A DNA stretch of 64,000 nt, taken from contig OZ242214.1 of NCBI GenBank assembly GCA_965206595.1, positions 5,696,001 through 5,760,000 on the forward strand, written 5' to 3'. The notes beneath the pieces are model-generated. The model ran no database searches, had not been told where the DNA came from, and saw only the letters and a program-made list of their open reading frames with translations. The translations under genes were made by a program, and so were the position numbers. Below, piece by piece: positions 3,110 through 30,889 of the stretch. The DNA is from Candidatus Latescibacterota bacterium. GTDB taxonomy: Bacteria; Latescibacterota; UBA2968; UBA8231. The first letter of the stretch is position 1. Every line of letters starts with the position of its first letter.

Positions 3110-4442
3110 GGGTCTATCCGGGTTTTTCAACGCCGAAACGTAAGTACGGAAAGTACCTGAGCCCTTGCTGTTCATCTGAGTACATGACAAGGCCATAGGT
3201 CGTTCCCTATGCTTGGTGTATCCCCATCAAGCACTCCCCAGGAAAGGGAAGGGAAGGCGACCTATGACCGCTATGAAGTTCGTCTCCAAGCTGTTCAAGT
3301 TCAAGGGGTTTGGCGCTGTGGGCGTGTGGTTCGAAGGACACGGGGAGGAAGCGGCCGTCGTGGTCGCGGTGAAGCCCCACAACAATGGGTGCCGCTGTCC
3401 CCAGTGTGGGCGCCGCGGCAAGATCGTACGGATCATGGAGCCCCGCCGCTGGCGCGACGTCCGCATTTGCGGCCGTACCGTCTGGTTGTACCACCGCCCT
3501 CGAGAGATCCGCTGTCCGACCCACGGCCGGCACGTCGAGGAGGTGCCCTGGGCAGCGCCCTCGGCCCGGGTCAGCTACCGCTTCGAATACCTGCTGCTGA
3601 CCTACTGCCAGTGGATGCCGCAGGTCACCGCCGCGCGCTTGCTGGGCCTGGCTCCTTCGACCCTGTCCGACCAGGTGCACCGGCTCATCGAGCGCCGGCG
3701 TACAGGCCATCGCATCCGCGCGCTGACGACCCTCGGCATCGACGAGATCTCCTACGCCAAGGGCCATAAATACGCCACCCTGGTCTACGACCTGGAGCGC
3801 TCCTGTGTCGTCTGGATCGGCAAGGGCAAGGCCCGCGAAACGATCGATACGTTCTTCCGGGACCATCTCAGCGCCTTCCGGAAGGCCCGTATCCGCTGGG
3901 CCTGCTGCGATATGAGCGAGACCTTCATCGGCGCCATCCGCCAGCACTGCCCCAACGCCCAGCTCGTCCTGGACCGATTCCACGTCGTCAAGGCCCTCAA
4001 CGAAGCCGTCGACGAGGTGCGCAAGGAACAGTGGCGGCAAGCCTGCGGCGAGGACCGCAAGCTGCTCAAGGGCCTGCGCTGGGTGCTGCTGCATCACTCC
4101 GCCCGGCGCTCGCCAAAGGACCGGCGCACGCTCCAAACCCTGGAGAAGGCCAACCGCCGCATCTACCGCGCCTGGCGCCTGAAGGACGAGTTCGAGCACT
4201 TCTGGCGCTACAAGGCGCGCTGGGCCGCCGAACGCTTCCTCAAGAAGTGGACGACGGCGGCCCTGCGCAGCCGCCTGGAGCCCCTGCGCAGGTTCGTCAA
4301 CACGGTGCGCAAGCATGCGGCCGGCATCACGGCCTTCGTCGACACGCACCTGACCAACGCCGCCGCCGAAGGGCTCAATCGAATCATCCGCATGGTCAAG
4401 AATCGAGCCAGTGGATTTAAATCTCTGGATGCCTTTGCCGAC
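3110..4442 (+). mobile_element. ISL3-family element, copy 2 (right end cut off by an ISKra4-like element)
   Basis: Starts GGGTCTATCCGGGTTTTTCAA. Transposase matches copy 3 up to FKSLDAFAD, then diverges at 4443. Confidence 0.93.
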
Positions 4443-18636: not shown

Positions 18637-19245
18637 GTGAACGGACTGTATCTCGATCCCCCAGAAAAGGCCCTGGTCCTGTGTTGCGACGAGAAGTGCC
18701 CGTGTCAGGCGTTGGAGCGCAGTCAGCCGGGCTTGCCTTTGGGCGTGGGGGAGCTTCGCACCAGGACGCACGACTACAAACGCCACGGGACGATCACCCT
18801 GTTTGCCGCGTTGAACTACCTGGACGGCAAGCTCATCGCACGCACCGAGGAGCAGCACACCCACGTGGAGTGGCTGCGCTTCTTGAAACAGATCGACCGA
18901 GAAACCCCGAAGGAGTTGGATCTGCACCTGATCGTCGACAACTACAGCACGCACAAAGAAGACAGGGTCAAACAGTGGCTGTCTCGGCACCCGCGCTTTC
19001 ACCTCCATTTCACTCCGACCGGTTCGTCCTGGTTAAACCTGATCGAACGTTTCTTCGGCGAACTGACGCAGGACGTGATCCGCGATGGCAGCTTCTCCAG
19101 CCTCAAAGCGCTGGTGAAAGACATCGAAAGCTATCTGGCCGAGAGGAACCGGAACCCCAAGCCCTACAAGTGGAAGGCGCGAGGCGAGGACATCCTGCGC
19201 AAGATCCAACGCGCCCGGCAGGCGCTGGAAGCCGAGCAGGGTTAA
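18637..19245 (+). pseudogene. IS630-family transposase, C-terminal part
   Basis: [35 protein letters not shown] region missing. Confidence 0.9.
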
Positions 19246-19270
19246 TTCCTTCTATTTAACGGACACTACA

Positions 19271-20362
19271 TTAGGTTGGTTTTGCCATGCGGTAGCCGAC
19301 GCGATTCGCAGTGAAGATATACGTGGGATTGCGTGCATCGTCGCCCAGCTTCTGACGAATGTCTTTTACATAGCCCCGTACGGCCTGCGGATCGTCCGAG
19401 TGACCCGAACCCCAGACCCGTTCCCCCAATTGACGGTGGGTCAACACCCGCCCGGCGTTGGCGGAAAGCTCGTGTAGCAGCCTGTACTCGGTCGGGGTCA
19501 GCTCAACCTGACGGCCGGCAAGGGTCACGGACCGTTCTTCGTAGTCGATCGTCAGGTTTCCGAGCCGATAGAGTGGCGGCATACCAGCCCGCGGCGGTTG
19601 TGGATCCTCGACTGTTGATTGAGCGTCCAGCCCCTTTCCCTCACCCCCAAGAACCGGGATGCGATGCCCCTGGCCTTTCTTGTCTGCCACGGGAATGGCG
19701 AAGGTGATTCGCGTACTGCCGCCCGTTTCGACGCCCACCGCCCATATCCGGCCGCCATGGGCCTCCACTATGCCCTTGCAGATCGCCAGGCTTAAGAGGC
19801 TGGCTCGTACGTCTTGCTCCCGGTTCTCGGAATCTATCCAAGAGAACTTTTCGACCTGATTCGGGAGGTGCACCGCTGAAATTCCCCTGCTCTCGTCTGC
19901 TACAGAGATCGCCACGAGGAGATCCGCAGCCCAAGCGGTCACCCTGATGGTAGACCCGTGGGGTGAGTACTTGGAGGCGTTGACGAAGAGCCTGTCCAAC
20001 ACTTGCAGGATGCGCTGTTTTTCCGCCATTACCTGGGGAAGGTTCCCCGGAAGATCGACATCGACGGGGTTTCGGGCTCCACTGAGCAGGAAGGTAGACC
20101 TGGCGTGGTCGACCAAGGCGGGGACATCAGTTGGCTCAGTTACAAATGAGAGATCTCCGGCCTCGACTTGGGTCATGTCGAGAAGGTCGTTGATCAGGCT
20201 GCGCAGAAGGTTGGCCTGATCGTCGATGATTTGAAATAGATGACGCGTCTCCACAGGGTCGGGTGGAGATGAGGCGGTGAGCGCCATGGTCGTCGAACCC
20301 TTGATGGTGGAAAGCGGAACCCGCAGCTTTTGGCTGACCTTGGAGAGGAACTCTGAACGCAT
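19271..20362 (-). pseudogene. Degenerate histidine kinase fused to an OmpR-type winged helix (KdpD/KdpE-like)
   Basis: H-box reads VSQKLRVPL (His lost), NASKYS, eroded G boxes, GIVEAHGGRIW, then LTPTEYRLL..RVGYRM. No receiver domain. Confidence 0.7.
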
Positions 20363-21023
20363 CCTTCCAACTCCTTCAGGGGCGTGATCTCATGGATAAC
20401 GGCAGGAGCCGACAGGACCTACCGTCTTTCGAGTGAATCGGTGTTGTGACGACGAGCGCGGTGATCGGGGTCGTCGTCACGATGGAGGGCCATATGGTGG
20501 GTGCGCACGGTCTCGCCTTTGACGAGCCCGCGTTCATATGGTAGTGAGGAGGCTGGCCTCGCTCAGCCGGGAGATTCGAGCTCTACGCGGCTTGTTTTCC
20601 TGTGGTTCCCATTCTGGTTCCGGCATGGCTCGGCCTGCCTGCGTTGCGGGAATTAGGCCGTTGGAGGGGCATACTTCTGAACTGCTGCATAGCTCATATA
20701 ACGGGACAATTTTGGTGCGCGTCAAGAAAAATATGACCCAAATTACCTCACATCCCAAAAAGGTGGGGCAAATAGCGGATATAACTTTGTGTAGTCAATA
20801 CATGGGCCTCTACGCCTTATCCATGAATGCTATAGTCCCCTATATATGCATCGCCACTATTTCCATATGGAATCCGAATATTTCCTTCCCCCAAATTGGG
20901 TGAAATTAGGAGTCGTGATCTTTCGAACAGGGCGCTCTGTAACCTTCTTGAAATAAACCCCATTTGAACCGAGGTTAGGTCAGCCATAGGTTTTTGAAAA
21001 GGGAATCGATGGAGGAGGATGGA

Positions 21024-21356
21024 ATGACAGATGGGGTGACGAAGGCGGCCCTGACTCCTGCTAGGCGCCGTCTGGTCGAAATGATGCAGGAGATCAACTT
21101 CGGGCGCCTCGAAGGGCTCGAAGTGCGAGATGGGGAACCGTTATTCGATCCACCGCCCTTGGCCGTGCGTCAAGTGGTGTTCGGGAAGAAGAACGGGCCG
21201 AAAGATAGTCGGGCCCAGGACGGCTACGCACTGAAGAAGAAGGTGGCGGAGCTGTTCGAGGTCTTCGACCGGGAGCAGATGTTCCGAGTCCTGGAGCTCG
21301 TGATCGACGACCGGTTGCCCCTCCGCATGACCGTGGCAGGGGGGTTGGGGAACTGA
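21024..21356 (+). CDS. Small 110-aa hypothetical protein, copy 1
   Basis: GGAGGAGG RBS. 88/110 identical to copy 2 by manual count. Confidence 0.85.
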   Translation: MTDGVTKAALTPARRRLVEMMQEINFGRLEGLEVRDGEPLFDPPPLAVRQVVFGKKNGPKDSRAQDGYALKKKVAELFEVFDREQMFRVLELVIDDRLPLRMTVAGGLGN

Positions 21357-21390
21357 AATCCGGCCCCGGTCAAAGCCGCGGTCCTTCGCG

Positions 21391-21498
21391 CAAGACTACC
21401 GGTTGCCCGCAGAAGCGGAGGCCTTTGTGGGTGTCGCCGCACCGGTGTCCTCGCAAGGCTTCCGCTTCTGTGTTTGAGGCGGGCCTTCCGGCCCCAGG
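21391..21498 (+). ncRNA. Putative structured RNA (attenuator-like hairpin), copy 1
   Basis: Stem CAGAAGCGGAGGCCTT/AAGGCTTCCGCTTCTG (21410-21470) with inner CGCCG-cac-CGGTG hairpin. Conserved with copy 2. Confidence 0.55.
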
Positions 21499-21532
21499 AA
21501 ATACAATCGCCCCACCCGGTTGGCTCAGACGT

Positions 21533-21558
21533 CCGACACTTTTCCCGATTTGCCGGTA
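21533..21558 (+). promoter_or_regulatory. Putative alternative-sigma promoter, copy C (would be autoregulatory)
   Basis: CCGACAC-ttttcccgatttg-CCGGTA, upstream of small ORF copy 2 and the sigma gene. Confidence 0.6.
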
Positions 21559-21634
21559 TGAAACCGTAGCTGAACCGGAACGGAATCAAGGGAACCATGG
21601 GATTGAACGGCGTGACCGAAACGGACCAACTGGA

Positions 21635-21967
21635 ATGACCGATGGTATAACCAAGGCGGCCCTGACTCCTGCCAGGCGCCGCCTTGTCGAAATGATGCAG
21701 GAGACCAACTTCGGGCGCATCGAAGGGCTCGAAGTGCGCAACGGGGAGCCCGTTCTCGATCCACCGCCCAGGGCGGTGCGCCAGATGGTGTTCGGCAAGA
21801 AGAACGGACCGAACGCGGGCCGCTCCAACAGCGGCTGTGCACTCAAGAAGAAAGTGGCGGAATTGTTCGAGGTCTTCGACCGGGAGCAGACGTTCCGGGT
21901 CCTGGAACTCGTGATCGACGATGGCCTGCCCGTCCGCATGACCGTGGCGGACGGGGATCGGACCTGA
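21635..21967 (+). CDS. Small 110-aa hypothetical protein, copy 2
   Basis: MTDGITKAALTPARRRLVEMMQ...; same length as copy 1, starting 611 bp downstream. Confidence 0.85.
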   Translation: MTDGITKAALTPARRRLVEMMQETNFGRIEGLEVRNGEPVLDPPPRAVRQMVFGKKNGPNAGRSNSGCALKKKVAELFEVFDREQTFRVLELVIDDGLPVRMTVADGDRT

Positions 21968-22002
21968 ATCCGGCCCCCAGGGAATAGACACGGTCTTTCA
22001 CA

Positions 22003-22109
22003 CCAGACAACCGGCTGGCCGCAGGAGCGGAGGTCGTTGTGGGTGTCGCCGAGCCGGCGTCCTCACAAGGCTTCCGCTTTTTTGTTTGAGGCGGCCTTGC
22101 CGGTCCAGG
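22003..22109 (+). ncRNA. Putative structured RNA (attenuator-like hairpin plus U tract), copy 2
   Basis: AGGAGCGGAGGTC-G-TTGTGGG...CGCCG-agc-CGGCG...CTCACAA-GGCTTCCGCTTTT, followed by TTGTTT. Confidence 0.55.
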
Positions 22110-22151
22110 TCGACCCCTGCGCCCGCTTCTGCCCGGCCCGGAGGAGGCGCA

Positions 22152-22742
22152 ATGAGTTTTGACCCCCGGCAAGGCGGCATCGACCCCTATGCCGCACAGC
22201 ACATTCGGTTCAAGGCCAGGCAGCTGGCCGGGCGGGCAGGTTTCGGGGCCGGCGAGCGCAAGGACCTGGAACAGGAGCTGTTCCTGGACCTGTTGCAACG
22301 GCTTCCCCAGTACGACCCGGAGCGCGCGCGGCGCACCACCTTCATCTCCCGGGTGGTGGCCAACCGGGTCTCGACCCTAATCGAGTCGCAGAAGGCGGGT
22401 TTGCGGGATTACCGTCTCCGCGGCGGCTCGTTGAACGAGCGCCTGGAGGACGAGGAAGGGCGTTCGGTGGAGCGCCTGGACACCCTGGATGGGGAGGACT
22501 ACCTGCTGCGCACCGGGGCGGTGTCGCGGCCGTGGGAGGAGCGGCAGGCCCTGGCCATCGACCTGGCGGCGCTGCTGGAAACCCTGCCGCCGGAGTGGCG
22601 CCTGCTGTGCCGCCGTCTGAGGGTGGAGACGGTCTCGGAGATTTCCCGGGATACCGGGATTGCGCGAGGGACGATCTACGAGTGGATCGGGAAGCTGCGG
22701 GGGATCTTCGAGGAGGCGGGCCTGAGGGAGTACCTCGAATAG
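22152..22742 (+). CDS. ECF-like sigma-70 family factor (regions 2 and 4)
   Basis: GGAGGAGG RBS. Region 2: ERKDLEQELFLDLL..YDPER...TFISRVVANR. Region 4 HTH: LETLPPEWR..TVSEISRDTGIARGTI. Confidence 0.82.
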   Translation: MSFDPRQGGIDPYAAQHIRFKARQLAGRAGFGAGERKDLEQELFLDLLQRLPQYDPERARRTTFISRVVANRVSTLIESQKAGLRDYRLRGGSLNERLEDEEGRSVERLDTLDGEDYLLRTGAVSRPWEERQALAIDLAALLETLPPEWRLLCRRLRVETVSEISRDTGIARGTIYEWIGKLRGIFEEAGLREYLE

Positions 22743-22848
22743 GGGGTACCGATGTCGGGCTCCTAGATTGGAATGAAGGGCTCCGTGGCTCGTGAGTTCT
22801 AGTGGGGCGTTCTATTCGAGATGGTTCGAGGAAAAGAGGGAAGGAATC

Positions 22849-22874
22849 CCGACACATTGCTTCAGATTCCGGTA
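22849..22874 (+). promoter_or_regulatory. Putative alternative-sigma promoter, copy D
   Basis: CCGACAC-attgcttcagatt-CCGGTA(AG), upstream of the 23095 gene. Confidence 0.6.
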
Positions 22875-23599
22875 AGAAACAAGTGCGTTCACCAATCATG
22901 GGCTGGGCGGCATGGCAAAAAGATGCTGGGGTTCTCGCTTTCAGCCAGCACAAGAAGAAGATGGCCAAATTTAATTCCACATCCAAGTAACCAAAGGGGG
23001 TCATATTCATGAATACACACTGAACGATACATTGAAGCAGGTTGTTTCAATCCGACCACAACGTAGCACACCACTCGAAAAAAAGGGAACCAAAATGAAA
23101 CTTCTCCACGAGCCTGGAAGTATGAAGGGCCTGAGTATCCAATCTCTGCAGACCTATGGATTCGACACGTACCAGTACGGGGCCACGCCCGACCGAGCCA
23201 ACAACGTGGACGGTCTGTGGACCGCCATGCAAAGTAACGTTTCCGGCCACTTCCAGGACTGGAACTCTCTGGACATCTACTGGGCTCTCAACCTCGAGGG
23301 AGACTCCCATGTGTTTCCCAACGGGTACACTTGGAACGGGATGCAGTTGGAGACGTACGACAGAAACGGGTTTTATGATACTCCCAGCCACCAGTTCTAC
23401 TCCAACATCCGGCAGATCGTTACCGAGCTGAGAGACTTCTCTCGCGCCGGGACCCGGCTGAAGGGAATACGGTGGAATCACGAATACGGTCCTGTGGTTT
23501 GGAAGATAGGATCCGATTGGGCAACGTACGCCATGGAGCACGCCCCCGCGGATTTCCAGACTGTAGTCGCCCATCGGGCAACCGAATGGGAATATTTCC

Positions 23600-25063
23600 G
23601 GCTATATCCGGGTTTTTCAAAGGACATTTTATAGCATGTACAGAGAGAGATATTGAGTGATTCACACGGTACGGAATCGGGCCGGAATCTGCGCAGGGAT
23701 ATCGAGGTCTCCGACGCACAGGTAAATGAGGTCGGCAAAGGCATCCAGAGATTTAAATCCACTGGCTCGATTCTTGACCATGCGGATGATTCGATTGAGC
23801 CCTTCGGCGGCGGCGTTGGTCAGGTGCGTGTCGACGAAGGCCGTGATGCCGGCCGCATGCTTGCGCACCGTGTTGACGAACCTGCGCAGGGGCTCCAGGC
23901 GGCTGCGCAGGGCCGCCGTCGTCCACTTCTTGAGGAAGCGTTCGGCGGCCCAGCGCGCCTTGTAGCGCCAGAAGTGCTCGAACTCGTCCTTCAGGCGCCA
24001 GGCGCGGTAGATGCGGCGGTTGGCCTTCTCCAGGGTTTGGAGCGTGCGCCGGTCCTTTGGCGAGCGCCGGGCGGAGTGATGCAGCAGCACCCAGCGCAGG
24101 CCCTTGAGCAGCTTGCGGTCCTCGCCGCAGGCTTGCCGCCACTGTTCCTTGCGCACCTCGTCGACGGCTTCGTTGAGGGCCTTGACGACGTGGAATCGGT
24201 CCAGGACGAGCTGGGCGTTGGGGCAGTGCTGGCGGATGGCGCCGATGAAGGTCTCGCTCATATCGCAGCAGGCCCAGCGGATACGGGCCTTCCGGAAGGC
24301 GCTGAGATGGTCCCGGAAGAACGTATCGATCGTTTCGCGGGCCTTGCCCTTGCCGATCCAGACGACACAGGAGCGCTCCAGGTCGTAGACCAGGGTGGCG
24401 TATTTATGGCCCTTGGCGTAGGAGATCTCGTCGATGCCGAGGGTCGTCAGCGCGCGGATGCGATGGCCTGTACGCCGGCGCTCGATGAGCCGGTGCACCT
24501 GGTCGGACAGGGTCGAAGGAGCCAGGCCCAGCAAGCGCGCGGCGGTGACCTGCGGCATCCACTGGCAGTAGGTCAGCAGCAGGTATTCGAAGCGGTAGCT
24601 GACCCGGGCCGAGGGCGCTGCCCAGGGCACCTCCTCGACGTGCCGGCCGTGGGTCGGACAGCGGATCTCTCGAGGGCGGTGGTACAACCAGACGGTACGG
24701 CCGCAAATGCGGACGTCGCGCCAGCGGCGGGGCTCCATGACCTGTACGATCTTGCCCCGGCGCCCACACTCGGGACACCGGCACCCGTTCCTTTGGGGCT
24801 TCACCGCGACCACGACGGCCGCTTCCTCCCCGTGTCCTTCGAACCACACGCCCACAGCGCCAAACCCCTTGAACTTGAACAGCTTGGAGACGAACTTCAT
24901 AGCGGTCATAGGTCGCCTTCCCTTCCCTTTCCTGGGGAGTGCTTGATGGGGATACACCAAGCATAGGGAACGACCTATGGCCTTGTCATGTACTCAGATG
25001 AACAGCAAGGGCTCAGGTGCTTTCCGTACTTACGTTTCGGCGTTGAAAAACCCGGATAGACCC
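23600..25063 (-). mobile_element. ISL3-family element, complete copy 3 (1464 bp)
   Basis: IRs GGCTATATCCGGGTTTTTCAA and TTGAAAAACCCGGATAGACCC. 8-bp TSD ATATTTCC at 23592-23599 and 25064-25071. Confidence 0.96.
23662..24909 (-). CDS. ISL3-family transposase (intact)
   Basis: GIDEIS, CCDMS, DRFHV, TNAAAEGLN..KNRASGF. Likely start is ATG 24909. Confidence 0.95.
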   Translation of the reverse strand: MTAMKFVSKLFKFKGFGAVGVWFEGHGEEAAVVVAVKPQRNGCRCPECGRRGKIVQVMEPRRWRDVRICGRTVWLYHRPREIRCPTHGRHVEEVPWAAPSARVSYRFEYLLLTYCQWMPQVTAARLLGLAPSTLSDQVHRLIERRRTGHRIRALTTLGIDEISYAKGHKYATLVYDLERSCVVWIGKGKARETIDTFFRDHLSAFRKARIRWACCDMSETFIGAIRQHCPNAQLVLDRFHVVKALNEAVDEVRKEQWRQACGEDRKLLKGLRWVLLHHSARRSPKDRRTLQTLEKANRRIYRAWRLKDEFEHFWRYKARWAAERFLKKWTTAALRSRLEPLRRFVNTVRKHAAGITAFVDTHLTNAAAEGLNRIIRMVKNRASGFKSLDAFADLIYLCVGDLDIPAQIPARFRTV

Positions 25064-28027: not shown

Positions 28028-29200
28028 CTAGTGTCCTGTCGTATAATTAACTGTACAAACAATTGAAGGTGCCGTAGGTTTCTCTTATCCCCTTTCTGAA
28101 AGGAGAGACCTATGGTGACGGGGCGTCCATTACCGCCGTTAGAGCTGAGTCCGTCGGACCGGGAACGGTTGGAATCGATGGCCAAATCCCGGAGCCTTTC
28201 CCACGGGTTGGTGCGGCGAGCCGAGATTATTCTGCTGGCCGCAGAAGGCTGGCCCAATGAAGCCGTCGCCGCCGCCGTGGGTGTGACGCGTGCTACGGTC
28301 GGCAAGTGGCGCCGGCGCTTTCTCGAAAACGGGCTCCAGGGCTTGCATGATGAGCTGCGCTCAGGGGCGCCACGATCGAGTACGGATGAACAGGTAGCCG
28401 AGGTGGTATACAAGACCCTGAAGACCAAGCCCAAAGACGAAACACAGTGGTCGGTGCGCTCCATGGGCGAAGAAACCGGCTTGACCAAGGACGCGGTTCA
28501 TCGCATTTGGCGCACGTATGGTTTGCAGCCCCATCGACACAAGCACTTCACGCTTTCCACCGATCCTTTCTTTGTCGACAAAGTACGGGATATCGTCGGC
28601 TTGTACCTGAATCCCCCCGAGCACGCCCTGGTGCTGTGCGTCGACGAGAAGAGCCGGATCCAGGCGTTGGAACGAAGTCAGCCCATGCTGCCCCTGGGAC
28701 TGGGATACGTGGAAGGGATTACGCACGATTACAAGCGCCATGGCACCACCACCCTGTTTGCCGCCTTGGACGTAGCCACCGGGGAAGTGATGACCCAGTG
28801 CAAGCCCCGTCATCGTCACCAGGAGTTCCTTCAGTTCCTGCGCCACATCGAGGCCCACGTCCCCGCTGACCTCGATATTCATCTCGTCGTCGACAACTAC
28901 GCCACGCATAAGCAGGCCAAGGTCAAGCGATGGCTGGCACGGCGTCCCCGATTTCACGTTCACTACACCCCCACCTATGCTTCGTGGCTCAATCAGGTGG
29001 AGATCTGGTTCAATATCCTTACCCGCCAGGCGGTTCGGCGCGATTCGTTCCGCAAGGTGTCGGAGCTCATCGAGCGCATTGAACGCTACACGGCCAAATG
29101 GAACGCCAACGCACACCCTTTCGTGTGGACGGCTACGGCCGATTCCATCCTCGCGAAAATCAAGAGACTTTGCGAACGAATCTCTGCGACACAACACTAG
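28028..29200 (+). mobile_element. IS630-family element with intact transposase (28112-29200)
   Basis: CTAG at both ends (28028-28031 and 29197-29200). Imperfect IRs TGTCCTGTCG/CGACACAACA. Motifs VDEK, DNYATHK, SWLNQVE. Confidence 0.94.
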
Positions 29201-29668: not shown

Positions 29669-30889
29669 GGCTCGTCAGTAGAATTCGTGGGTGAATTGTG
29701 GCTCGGGTAAATCGCCAAGCTGATGGAATGAAGCGATTTGGAGTGCCTTGAAGGTGCGGCATCCGAATGCTTTTCTCCCTGTCAGATTCCATTTCAGGTT
29801 CAAGCCCTCGACCATGCCGTTGTTGAACTGCTTCCTGGCCCTGAACCAATTGAGGATGAGCTCTTGGTGACGCCGCAGCATTCCGGCGATGTCTTTCATC
29901 GGTTCGATGTTGCTTCTCATCGTACGGAAACACCCGCGCTGGAGGAACTTCTCAGCCCACGCGGAGTAGGTGTAGTCCCAGAAGCGCTGGAAGTCCTCCT
30001 TGAGCAGGTAGGCTCTGACCGTCCGCAGGTTCATCTTCAATAGCTCCGACAGCTTCAAGCCTTGGGAGTCGCTTCTGGTCGAGGAAACGGGTCGGCTCCT
30101 GCTCGCCGCCGGCTTCCTGCTTGCGCCGGTGCTCCTGCTCCCGTTCGGTAAAGCCGTCGTTCAAGGCCTTCTTCGTCCGCTTCTCGCCCATCCACAACAG
30201 GCGGCGGCGGTGGGGGTCGATCTGGTACAGCAACGTCAGATAATGAGGCCCCTTACGATACTGGATTTCATCCACGCCGAGGGCCGTGACCTGGTCGAGG
30301 CAGCGATGAGCGAGCCCATAGTCCACGACGTACTGGACGGAGTGGTAGACCTTGTCCCAACGGGTCCGGAAGGAACGCGCCACCTCGATCCACGACAGTT
30401 TTTTGGCCCCCTGGGCCAGGAAGCAGCGGTAGAGGTCGGTCAGGTGGTGCTTGCCCGTGCTCCAGGGGACCTTCTCGACGACCACCCGGCCGCAGGCTTT
30501 GCAGGCAACCCGGCGCATGCGATACACCAGAAAGACCGGAAACCCCCAGAGGGGAACAAACTCGAACAGCCGGGCCTCGGGGGCCGTGTCATAGGTGGGG
30601 GCCAAGTGACCGCAGCCGCTGCACGCGCCCCGGGAGTTTTTCCGTGGCCTTATCCTCACCATTATCCTTCCGTGCCGGTCAAAATGACTGCCCTCAAACA
30701 CAAACCGCTTGAAGGTCGTGCACCGGTTTAGTACCGTGATCAGGCGCATCATTCCCTCCACAGGTAGTTGGGTTCCGTCTTGGTGGACTGTCCCAACATA
30801 CCGGGGGATGATGCGCCTGGGCTACCTGGCCTCCTCTATTCCCATCGCCGCAGCCTCCCCTCCTCACCCACAGATTCTCCAGAGGAGCC
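29669..30889 (-). mobile_element. Second, distinct ISL3-family element, internally deleted
   Basis: Ends GGCTCGTCAGTAGAATTCGTGGGTGA and TCACCCACAGATTCTCCAGAGGAGCC. Fragments LGVDEIQYRKG and NGMVEGLN lie in different frames. Flanks are not duplicated. Confidence 0.88.

Follow-up and report, generated by a model that had tools for sequence, protein, structure and literature searches.

At positions 21391 to 22109 of a 64,000-nucleotide stretch of the genome of a Candidatus Latescibacterota bacterium (assembly GCA_965206595.1, contig OZ242214.1, positions 5,696,001 to 5,760,000; hereafter, the window), a long hairpin occurs twice, behind two copies of a small open reading frame (ORF) and, for the second copy, ahead of a gene for a phage-type sigma factor. 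The question raised by this locus is what such a hairpin might be for. A previous inspection of the DNA without database searches (the sequence-only reading) had described a duplicated, non-coding hairpin whose substitutions preserve base pairing. That description was incomplete rather than wrong: the hairpin is just one of three mutually exclusive pairings of a single RNA strand. What these copies represent is a widespread, previously undescribed leader RNA of phages, with three alternative pairings that covary. Together with the small ORF (110 amino acids) and the gene for the phage sigma-70 family protein, it constitutes a module of temperate phages and prophages.

A repeat search of the window returned two tandem copies of a unit, composed of the 110-amino acid ORF and the long hairpin, with a spacing of 611–612 nt. 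Two direct repeats were found, one of 300 nt with 83% identity (21020–21319 and 21631–21930) and one of 131 nt with 80% identity (21364–21494 and 21976–22106), as well as an inverted repeat (21410–21425 and 21455–21470). When 110-nt stretches were folded as RNA, copy 1 yielded −61.9 kcal/mol (z = −5.5) and copy 2 yielded −63.2 kcal/mol (z = −5.4); in neither case did any of 200 shuffled sequences fold as well, confirming a duplicated hairpin with a stable fold. The minus strands of copies 1 and 2 folded to −47.9 and −49.8 kcal/mol only, the plus strand being better by 13–14 kcal/mol.

The differences originally listed between the copies (GAAGCGG/GGAGCGG, GGCC/GGTC, CAC/AGC, CGGTG/CGGCG and CGCAA/CACAA) were all present in our pairwise alignment, where those affecting the stem are restricted to the loop, to one bulge position, or to swaps between Watson–Crick and G-U pairs. 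The conserved segment said to precede the stem and the U-rich tail said to follow it were both found, and the location is indeed non-coding, lying past the stop codon of the 110-amino acid ORF and, in copy 2, ahead of the start codon (ATG) of the sigma-like gene. A degenerate 25-nt pattern for the 5′ arm had exactly two matches in the window, with 0 expected, and in the whole 7.05-Mb genome BLAST and a covariance model alike detected exactly two copies of the element.

The element did not correspond to any RNA family in Rfam. Comparison with Rfam 15, a check proposed in the sequence-only reading, gave mir-254 as the best overlap for positions 19000–24000 of the window (20.9 bits, against a gathering score of 70; E = 0.96), and a best score of 19.5 bits (gathering score, 90) for a typical member of the family, taken from locus L023 (4250–4600). 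The Rfam phage antisense families, including C4 and isrK, matched neither the window region nor this typical member. Likewise, GenBank phage records contained no DNA match to the element and no protein match to the small ORF, and in the published literature searched there was no description of the element, its core 15-mers occurring only in one unrelated paper on BMP-2.

Relatives of the small ORF number 174 in a large protein database, and 60 loci containing it were obtained when species-representative genomes were scanned. The labels of these records include Latescibacterota, Acidobacteriota, Desulfobacterota, Chloroflexota, Planctomycetota, Nitrospirota, Fibrobacterota, Verrucomicrobiota, Zixibacteria and others, for a total of more than 10 phyla. 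The only ORFs of the window common to loci outside the genus are the small ORF (60/60) and the sigma gene (52/60), whose homologues in those 52 loci are found 3′ of the element.

As the sequence-only reading had suggested, we built a covariance model from the regions behind homologous ORFs. The scan with this model covered 99 of the 147 protein-found loci and located the RNA downstream of the small-ORF homologue in 96 of them, both window copies included; no match was obtained in L047, L049 and L294. In the ORF-oriented loci, all 98 matches with E ≤ 1e-7 placed the element on the same strand as the small ORF, and the mirror matches on the minus strand reached 21–32 bits only. In L047 and L049, which are Dehalococcoidia records, the stop codon of the small ORF is followed by a different sequence.

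IMG/VR has 29 contigs with the exact 19-nt core of the hairpin 5′ arm, and at least 120 metagenome stretches contain it as well. The core was present once per provirus in the five proviruses checked (44–65 kb), about 6 kb from one end, and it is retained where the flanking proteins have diverged to 27–45% identity. A typical locus, L023, is a prophage early region encoding an S24/LexA-like repressor and two unknown genes, then the small ORF, the RNA and the sigma factor; beyond the latter there are a PD-(D/E)XK exonuclease, a Sak4-like AAA_24 protein and a DUF669 protein resembling single-stranded DNA-binding proteins. A repeated promoter or operator motif was considered and discarded, since the exact core is found once per provirus and other sites had one mismatch and occurred at about the level of a reversed-pattern control.

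The early regions of some 8.3-kb loci (L013–L024, L032 and L067) show 92–97% DNA identity over about 8 kb across differently labelled phyla (Desulfobacterota, Nitrospirota, Phycisphaerae, Fibrobacterota, Chloroflexota and Zixibacteria). This reflects either very recent and wide transfer or the mis-binning of phage contigs in metagenome-assembled genomes.

In the family consensus, the RNA starts with an upstream, C/A-rich box A (CACCAGACAAC..GACUGGCCGC), followed by a G/U-rich strand B (in the form of the window lineage, GCGGAGGUCGUUGUGGGUGUCGCC), by an apical loop and by arm C (GGCG.CUCRCAAC.CCUCCGC). After arm C comes a variable spacer, U-rich in some lineages, and then box D (CGACACCCAC, then CGAGCUCC). 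A last hairpin, H4 (CCUCCUCGG/CCGAGGAGG), contains the Shine–Dalgarno sequence, and the start codon of the sigma gene comes last. Helix H1 (i.e., the hairpin noticed originally) results from the complementarity of strand B to C, H2 from that to A, and H3 from that to D together with the 8 nt that follow it. For one typical member, the computed energies were −57.3 kcal/mol for H1 plus an outer helix, −20.8 for H2, −33.9 for H3 and −17.2 for H4. The core stem of H1, at −35.2 and −35.6 kcal/mol in the window and with family means of −40.5 and −44.5 kcal/mol, is a stable, GC-rich hairpin of the sort found in terminators. In some members (L124, L175, L186, L214, L173 and L272) the apical loop of H1 carries an extra small hairpin, for example CCGG-AACACA-CCGG; apical-loop insertions of variable length are typical of structured RNAs.

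For the analysis of covariation, we assembled an unbiased set of viral sequences through diverged small-ORF homologues alone (146 IMG/VR relatives, of which 80 were kept). The 62 distinct sequences of this set contain 25 classes of B, with roughly only GGAGG..UGUGGG.G constant, and this variation made two-sided covariation tests possible.

H1 was assessed with a covariance model; 49 diverse sequences and the H1 structure served to build it, and 93 distinct homologues were aligned to it. In this alignment (A9), 87.8% of the cells pair, against 33–63% for slid controls. Two-sided changes affected 14 of the 24 pairs (shuffles, 7.8 ± 1.5; 0/500 as high), and there were 51 doubly changed cells, against 15.9 in shuffles. 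The same picture emerged from a MAFFT alignment of 83 representatives (83.8% paired vs 45–57%). The covariation across homologues supports the claim of selection on RNA structure, and the strong conservation of sequence, together with the scarcity of U-tracts after the stem described below, is not what a generic terminator would show.

H2 and H3 were evaluated on a MAFFT alignment of 37 sequences spanning all B classes. For H2, 92.1% of the cells were paired and two-sided changes were seen in 8 of the 17 pairs (shuffled alignments, 5.1 ± 0.9; 0/500), with exchanges such as GC 24/AU 12, AU 16/GC 13 and CG 19/UA 10. For H3, 86.4% of the cells were paired (42–55% in slid controls), with 43 doubly changed cells against 20.7 in shuffles (0/500) and exchanges such as UA 19/CG 12/UG 3 and AU 13/CG 9/UA 8/UG 3. 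Also in the case of H4, pairing was extensive (82.8% of the cells) and three of six pairs changed on both sides.

The duplex between B and the downstream segment, located at a fixed −42/−43 nt from the start codon, had a mean energy of −32.0 kcal/mol, against −20.8 kcal/mol for dinucleotide shuffles, and it was better than all 100 shuffles in 83% of 146 sequences. When the boxes were paired with their own B rather than with foreign B classes, binding was better by 5.1 kcal/mol for D, 4.3 for A and 5.5 for C. The first variable position of B is matched in D as U-A (39 sequences), C-G (19) or U-G (3), being unpaired in 1; the second as C-G (22), A-U (22), U-A (12) or U-G (1), being unpaired in 5. 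In locus L139, D is a perfect 20-nt complement of B.

Folding of partial and complete leaders indicated an order for these pairings. A prefix through B folds as H2, a prefix through C refolds to H1, and the full-length minimum free energy (MFE) structure consists of H1, the outer helix and H4. Among 146 full-length folds, B:C pairing was present in 141, and in 111 the Shine–Dalgarno region had at least 8 of 10 nt paired, as expected of a conserved hairpin that sequesters this signal. Two mutually exclusive helices that share B, with the upstream one forming first, are the arrangement of a terminator/antiterminator attenuator, while a central segment complementary both upstream (A:B) and downstream (B:D), to the extents given above, is the layout of a leader of the P4 type. 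When arm C was blocked, B paired with D and H4 stayed, with the Shine–Dalgarno sequence still paired. The idea that H3 might free the Shine–Dalgarno sequence was abandoned on these grounds, and because H3 ends at the very column where H4 starts. A further candidate was a leader peptide starting from the GUG that is located in B, 5 nt on the 3′ side of GGAGGU; inspection spoke against it, as loop lengths vary by 1–2 nt among members and no frame is kept.

With helices that share strand B and covary with it, a fixed position and orientation just before the sigma gene, and a hairpin over the Shine–Dalgarno sequence of that gene, the H1 hairpin is reasonably likely to be one of the folds of a leader RNA that has several states and acts in cis to gate the sigma gene. 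In such a leader, H2 would form first during transcription and would serve as an antiterminator. H1, the most stable pairing, would act as a terminator or attenuator, a U-tract following it directly in the window and in many relatives. The ground state, H1 plus H4, would keep the sigma factor off, and some factor, possibly the upstream small protein, would shift the balance. The B:D pairing may represent an additional lock around the start of translation or, alternatively, the target of B acting as an antisense.

A more ambitious version of this scheme, to which we assign a rather low probability, would make the module a device of protein and RNA that times the lytic switch in a large, uncultivated group of temperate phages and gives it specificity. 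In that case the 110-amino acid protein would be a new RNA-binding antiterminator that locks the A:B hairpin, thereby preventing formation of the B:C terminator or the B:D lock, and the sigma factor would be released only once the early protein had accumulated. The co-evolving classes of B, A, C and D would then delimit groups of immunity or of specificity, comparable to those of P4 and P1/P7.

Several observations weigh against a gating leader. H3 abuts H4 without opening it, so that none of the conformers can be presented as the ‘on’ state, and the advantage of H1 over H2 in stability is about 20 kcal/mol, implying that switching needs a factor. In copy 2 of the window, the B:D duplex (−19.8 kcal/mol) is no better than shuffles, i.e., in the window lineage this complementarity is at chance level. 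Of 58 unbiased viral members, just 10 have U at five or more of the eight positions that follow the stem, and 30 have no U there; a U-tract being absent in most of these members, intrinsic termination is not the general output. Contigs from three RNA libraries bridge the ORF, the leader and the sigma gene, but they are silent on transcript ends, strand, level and DNA carry-over; they are compatible with co-transcription, and we do not count them as evidence of read-through. There are also reservations about the statistics. Loci L069–L223 were found via the exact core, so that B is invariant there by construction; the 93-row alignment was fitted to H1, which favors H1; and the sequences are related, so that the shuffle controls overstate significance and the resulting figures are counts rather than probabilities.

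A simpler explanation would be that the hairpin is a strong Rho-independent terminator closing the small-ORF unit, its conserved flanks being incidental and carried along by a recently spread mobile element. The long GC-rich stem is followed by 7/8 U in copy 2 and 5/8 U in copy 1, at least 5/8 U are present in 64 of 143 pattern-plus-genome members, and copy 1 retains, and even tightens, its stem despite a degenerate A box and a lost D box. Indeed, termination at H1 is plausible in the window lineage. Against a plain terminator stand the U counts of the unbiased viral members, a simple promoter/terminator scan that flagged neither hairpin copy (and revealed no promoter-like site), and the persistence of the core at 27–45% identity of the flanking proteins. 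Moreover, boxes A and D covary with B, and termination cannot explain the conserved boxes of the family and their covariation; in length and in sequence conservation, the stem also goes well beyond what termination requires. We deem this explanation quite unlikely. The possibility of an element acting at the DNA level (an operator, a recombination site, an origin or a single-strand initiation site, with inverted repeats bound by protein) appears highly improbable. B/C, A/B and B/D are, to be sure, inverted repeats in DNA as well, and the half-sites of a dimeric protein would covary too. Yet one-sided changes in D opposite G or U comprised 128 wobble-preserving transitions and 40 transversions, against 172 and 207, respectively, in conserved control columns outside the helices, a bias favoring RNA pairing over DNA symmetry. 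The three partners are alike only via their wobble complementarity to B, the plus strand folds better by the margin given above, and the matches of the covariance model lie on the ORF strand, with much weaker mirrors. The variable hairpin insertions in the apical loop and the single copy of the core per provirus also speak against such an element.

An immunity RNA similar to P4 CI or P1 c4 would imply a different use of the same pairings: a processed B hairpin would act as an antisense, in trans and in cis, on boxes A and D, with the transcripts of the same or of a superinfecting phage as targets, so that sigma expression would be blocked in lysogens. In the satellite phage P4 (PMC4825925), the CI RNA (seqB) pairs with upstream seqA and downstream seqC, and premature termination blocks the lytic genes. 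The star layout, with a central segment complementary to upstream and downstream segments, is the same here; the 25 classes of B among the 62 unbiased sequences, with A, C and D each tracking their own B, are what specificity groups would produce; and the element occurs in the early, immunity-proximal region of proviruses. On the other hand, B is not exposed in a loop but lies buried within a stem–loop of about −40 kcal/mol, the Rfam phage antisense families are unmatched, a protein repressor is encoded too, and co-resident elements within one genome (L037, L042 and L056; L054 and L055) share the same B. On balance, we consider an immunity RNA unlikely, and the gating leader remains our preferred interpretation.

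Among known systems, the P4 immunity leader has the closest logic to the proposed one. Both have one central RNA segment complementary to both sides, within the same untranslated leader, in the early operon of a temperate element. The two differ in that there is no sequence or Rfam relation, the hosts here are mostly non-proteobacterial, the controlled gene is that of a sigma factor, and the central strand has a further partner, arm C, that buries B in a long hairpin; processing and action in trans would be hypothetical for the present element. The prophage Gifsy-1 offers another parallel, namely the IsrK leader, which either stops at a terminator hairpin or reads into an mRNA with a masked ribosome-binding site (PMC4825925). 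The likeness lies in a prophage leader with a terminator-type hairpin and a masked ribosome-binding site downstream; but there is no homology, the helix logic differs, and no pairing unmasked the Shine–Dalgarno sequence in our folds.

A comparison can also be made at the level of mechanism. Terminator/antiterminator attenuators of the BglG/SacY-RAT type are stabilized by a protein. Like these, the element has two exclusive helices that share a strand, with an upstream A:B pairing that forms first and a more stable B:C pairing with a U-tract in many members. Unlike them, it has a third pairing (B:D), no known RNA-binding domain was found in its neighboring protein, and most viral members lack the U-tract. 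A typical Rho-independent terminator is resembled in the GC-rich stem and the U residues directly following it in both window copies, the differences being the length and conservation of the stem and the covarying partner boxes.

Phage lysis–lysogeny and early-to-late switches are textbook regulatory circuits, and to our knowledge the cases described so far are almost entirely limited to a few phages of Proteobacteria and Firmicutes. The present element, with one strand and three covarying partners, offers a compact and testable case. If its logic were worked out, it could serve to mark this group of phages and help to explain how their late genes are timed, and it might also reveal a new RNA-binding protein family. 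For genome annotation, the odd duplicated hairpin is explained as part of a decaying prophage cassette.

The small protein is possibly the factor that shifts the fold, being an obvious candidate by virtue of its adjacency to the leader, in which no aptamer-like junction was seen. A confident AlphaFold model of the copy 2 product, P0002 (predicted local distance difference test score, 84.3; predicted template modelling score, 0.79), shows two halves, each formed by a helix plus a β-hairpin. The small ORF belongs to no Pfam or PHROG family. When the P0002 model was compared with the PDB by Foldseek, no match was obtained at E ≤ 0.001, a wide structural alignment (VIA-align) gave a best Z of 2.9, and the ESM Atlas neighbors were only ‘hypothetical protein’ clusters, mostly viral. 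Overall, no RNA-binding domain or fold was recognized by Pfam, Foldseek, structural alignment or the ESM Atlas. In many loci (e.g., L023, at about 4320–4345), the stop codon of the small ORF lies inside a short palindrome (CCGGGTCTGA/TCAGACCCGG), of which the window has a weaker version at about 21955–21975 (CGGA..TCCG).

The two window copies are in different states. The first small ORF (P0001; 21024..21356, plus strand) encodes a 110-amino acid product that is 80% identical to that of copy 2 in translation and has no Pfam match. It is followed on the same strand by element copy 1 (21376..21504; covariance model score, 66.2 bits, E = 1.8e-13), a partial and degenerate duplicate comprising a remnant of the A box (21390–21399), B (21415–21438), arm C (21443–21465) and a U-rich tail (21466–21475). 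The A box has three substitutions, and the D box, the Shine–Dalgarno hairpin H4 and the sigma gene are missing; downstream there is a spacer (21505..21634, plus strand), then the second ORF copy. Two substitutions affect the near-invariant B (GGCCTTTG vs GGTCGTTG), changing U.G to C-G and G.A to U-A, and both make H1 more perfect. Copy 1 is therefore best described as a partial duplicate that is now constrained as a hairpin only, probably a plain terminator.

Copy 2 follows the second small ORF (P0002; 21635..21967, plus strand) and spans 21988..22120 on the plus strand (covariance model score, 103 bits, E = 3e-22). It retains the A box (CACCAGACAAC, 22001–22011), B (22027–22050), the apical loop, arm C (22055–22077), a U-tract (22078–22087) and the 3′ strand of the outer helix (22092–22106), while its D box (CGACCCCTGC, 22111–22120) has drifted to a degenerate form. 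H4 (22119..22151, plus strand) is retained as well and buries the Shine–Dalgarno sequence of the sigma-like gene (GGAGGAGG, 22140–22147); in the full-length MFE structure, 8 of 10 nt upstream of the sigma start region are paired. The sigma gene itself (22152..22742, plus strand; 196 amino acids), which begins about 70 nt after copy 2, matches Pfam Sigma70_r2 (E = 3.6e-6; 27.1 bits, against a cutoff of 24) and PHROG 1740, ‘RNA polymerase sigma factor’ (E = 6.2e-10). Copy 2 is thus a largely intact leader, probably still working as a terminator or attenuator before an intact sigma gene.

In a genome of the same genus (G002), the spacer is also found between the two ORF copies (locus L004, 1840–1940), and there is no hairpin behind the first of these. 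One of the two sigma-gene copies of G002 has an in-frame TAG at codon 54 (L004, 2615–2617), where the window has TAC.

On the 3′ side of the sigma gene, the window contains genes for an ISL3-family transposase (23662–24957, minus strand) and a DDE_3 (IS630-like) transposase (28112–29197, plus strand), then a truncated ISL3 gene (29952–30758, minus strand), beyond which lie genes of purine metabolism. None of the usual phage neighbors of the module are present around the cassette. Because of these downstream insertion sequence (IS) elements and the absence of the normal phage genes, the window cassette looks like an IS-ridden prophage remnant. Upstream of the module, on the minus strand, there is a gene (19271–20362) encoding an unusual kinase–effector fusion, in which HisKA and HATPase_c domains are joined to a C-terminal Trans_reg_C DNA-binding domain.

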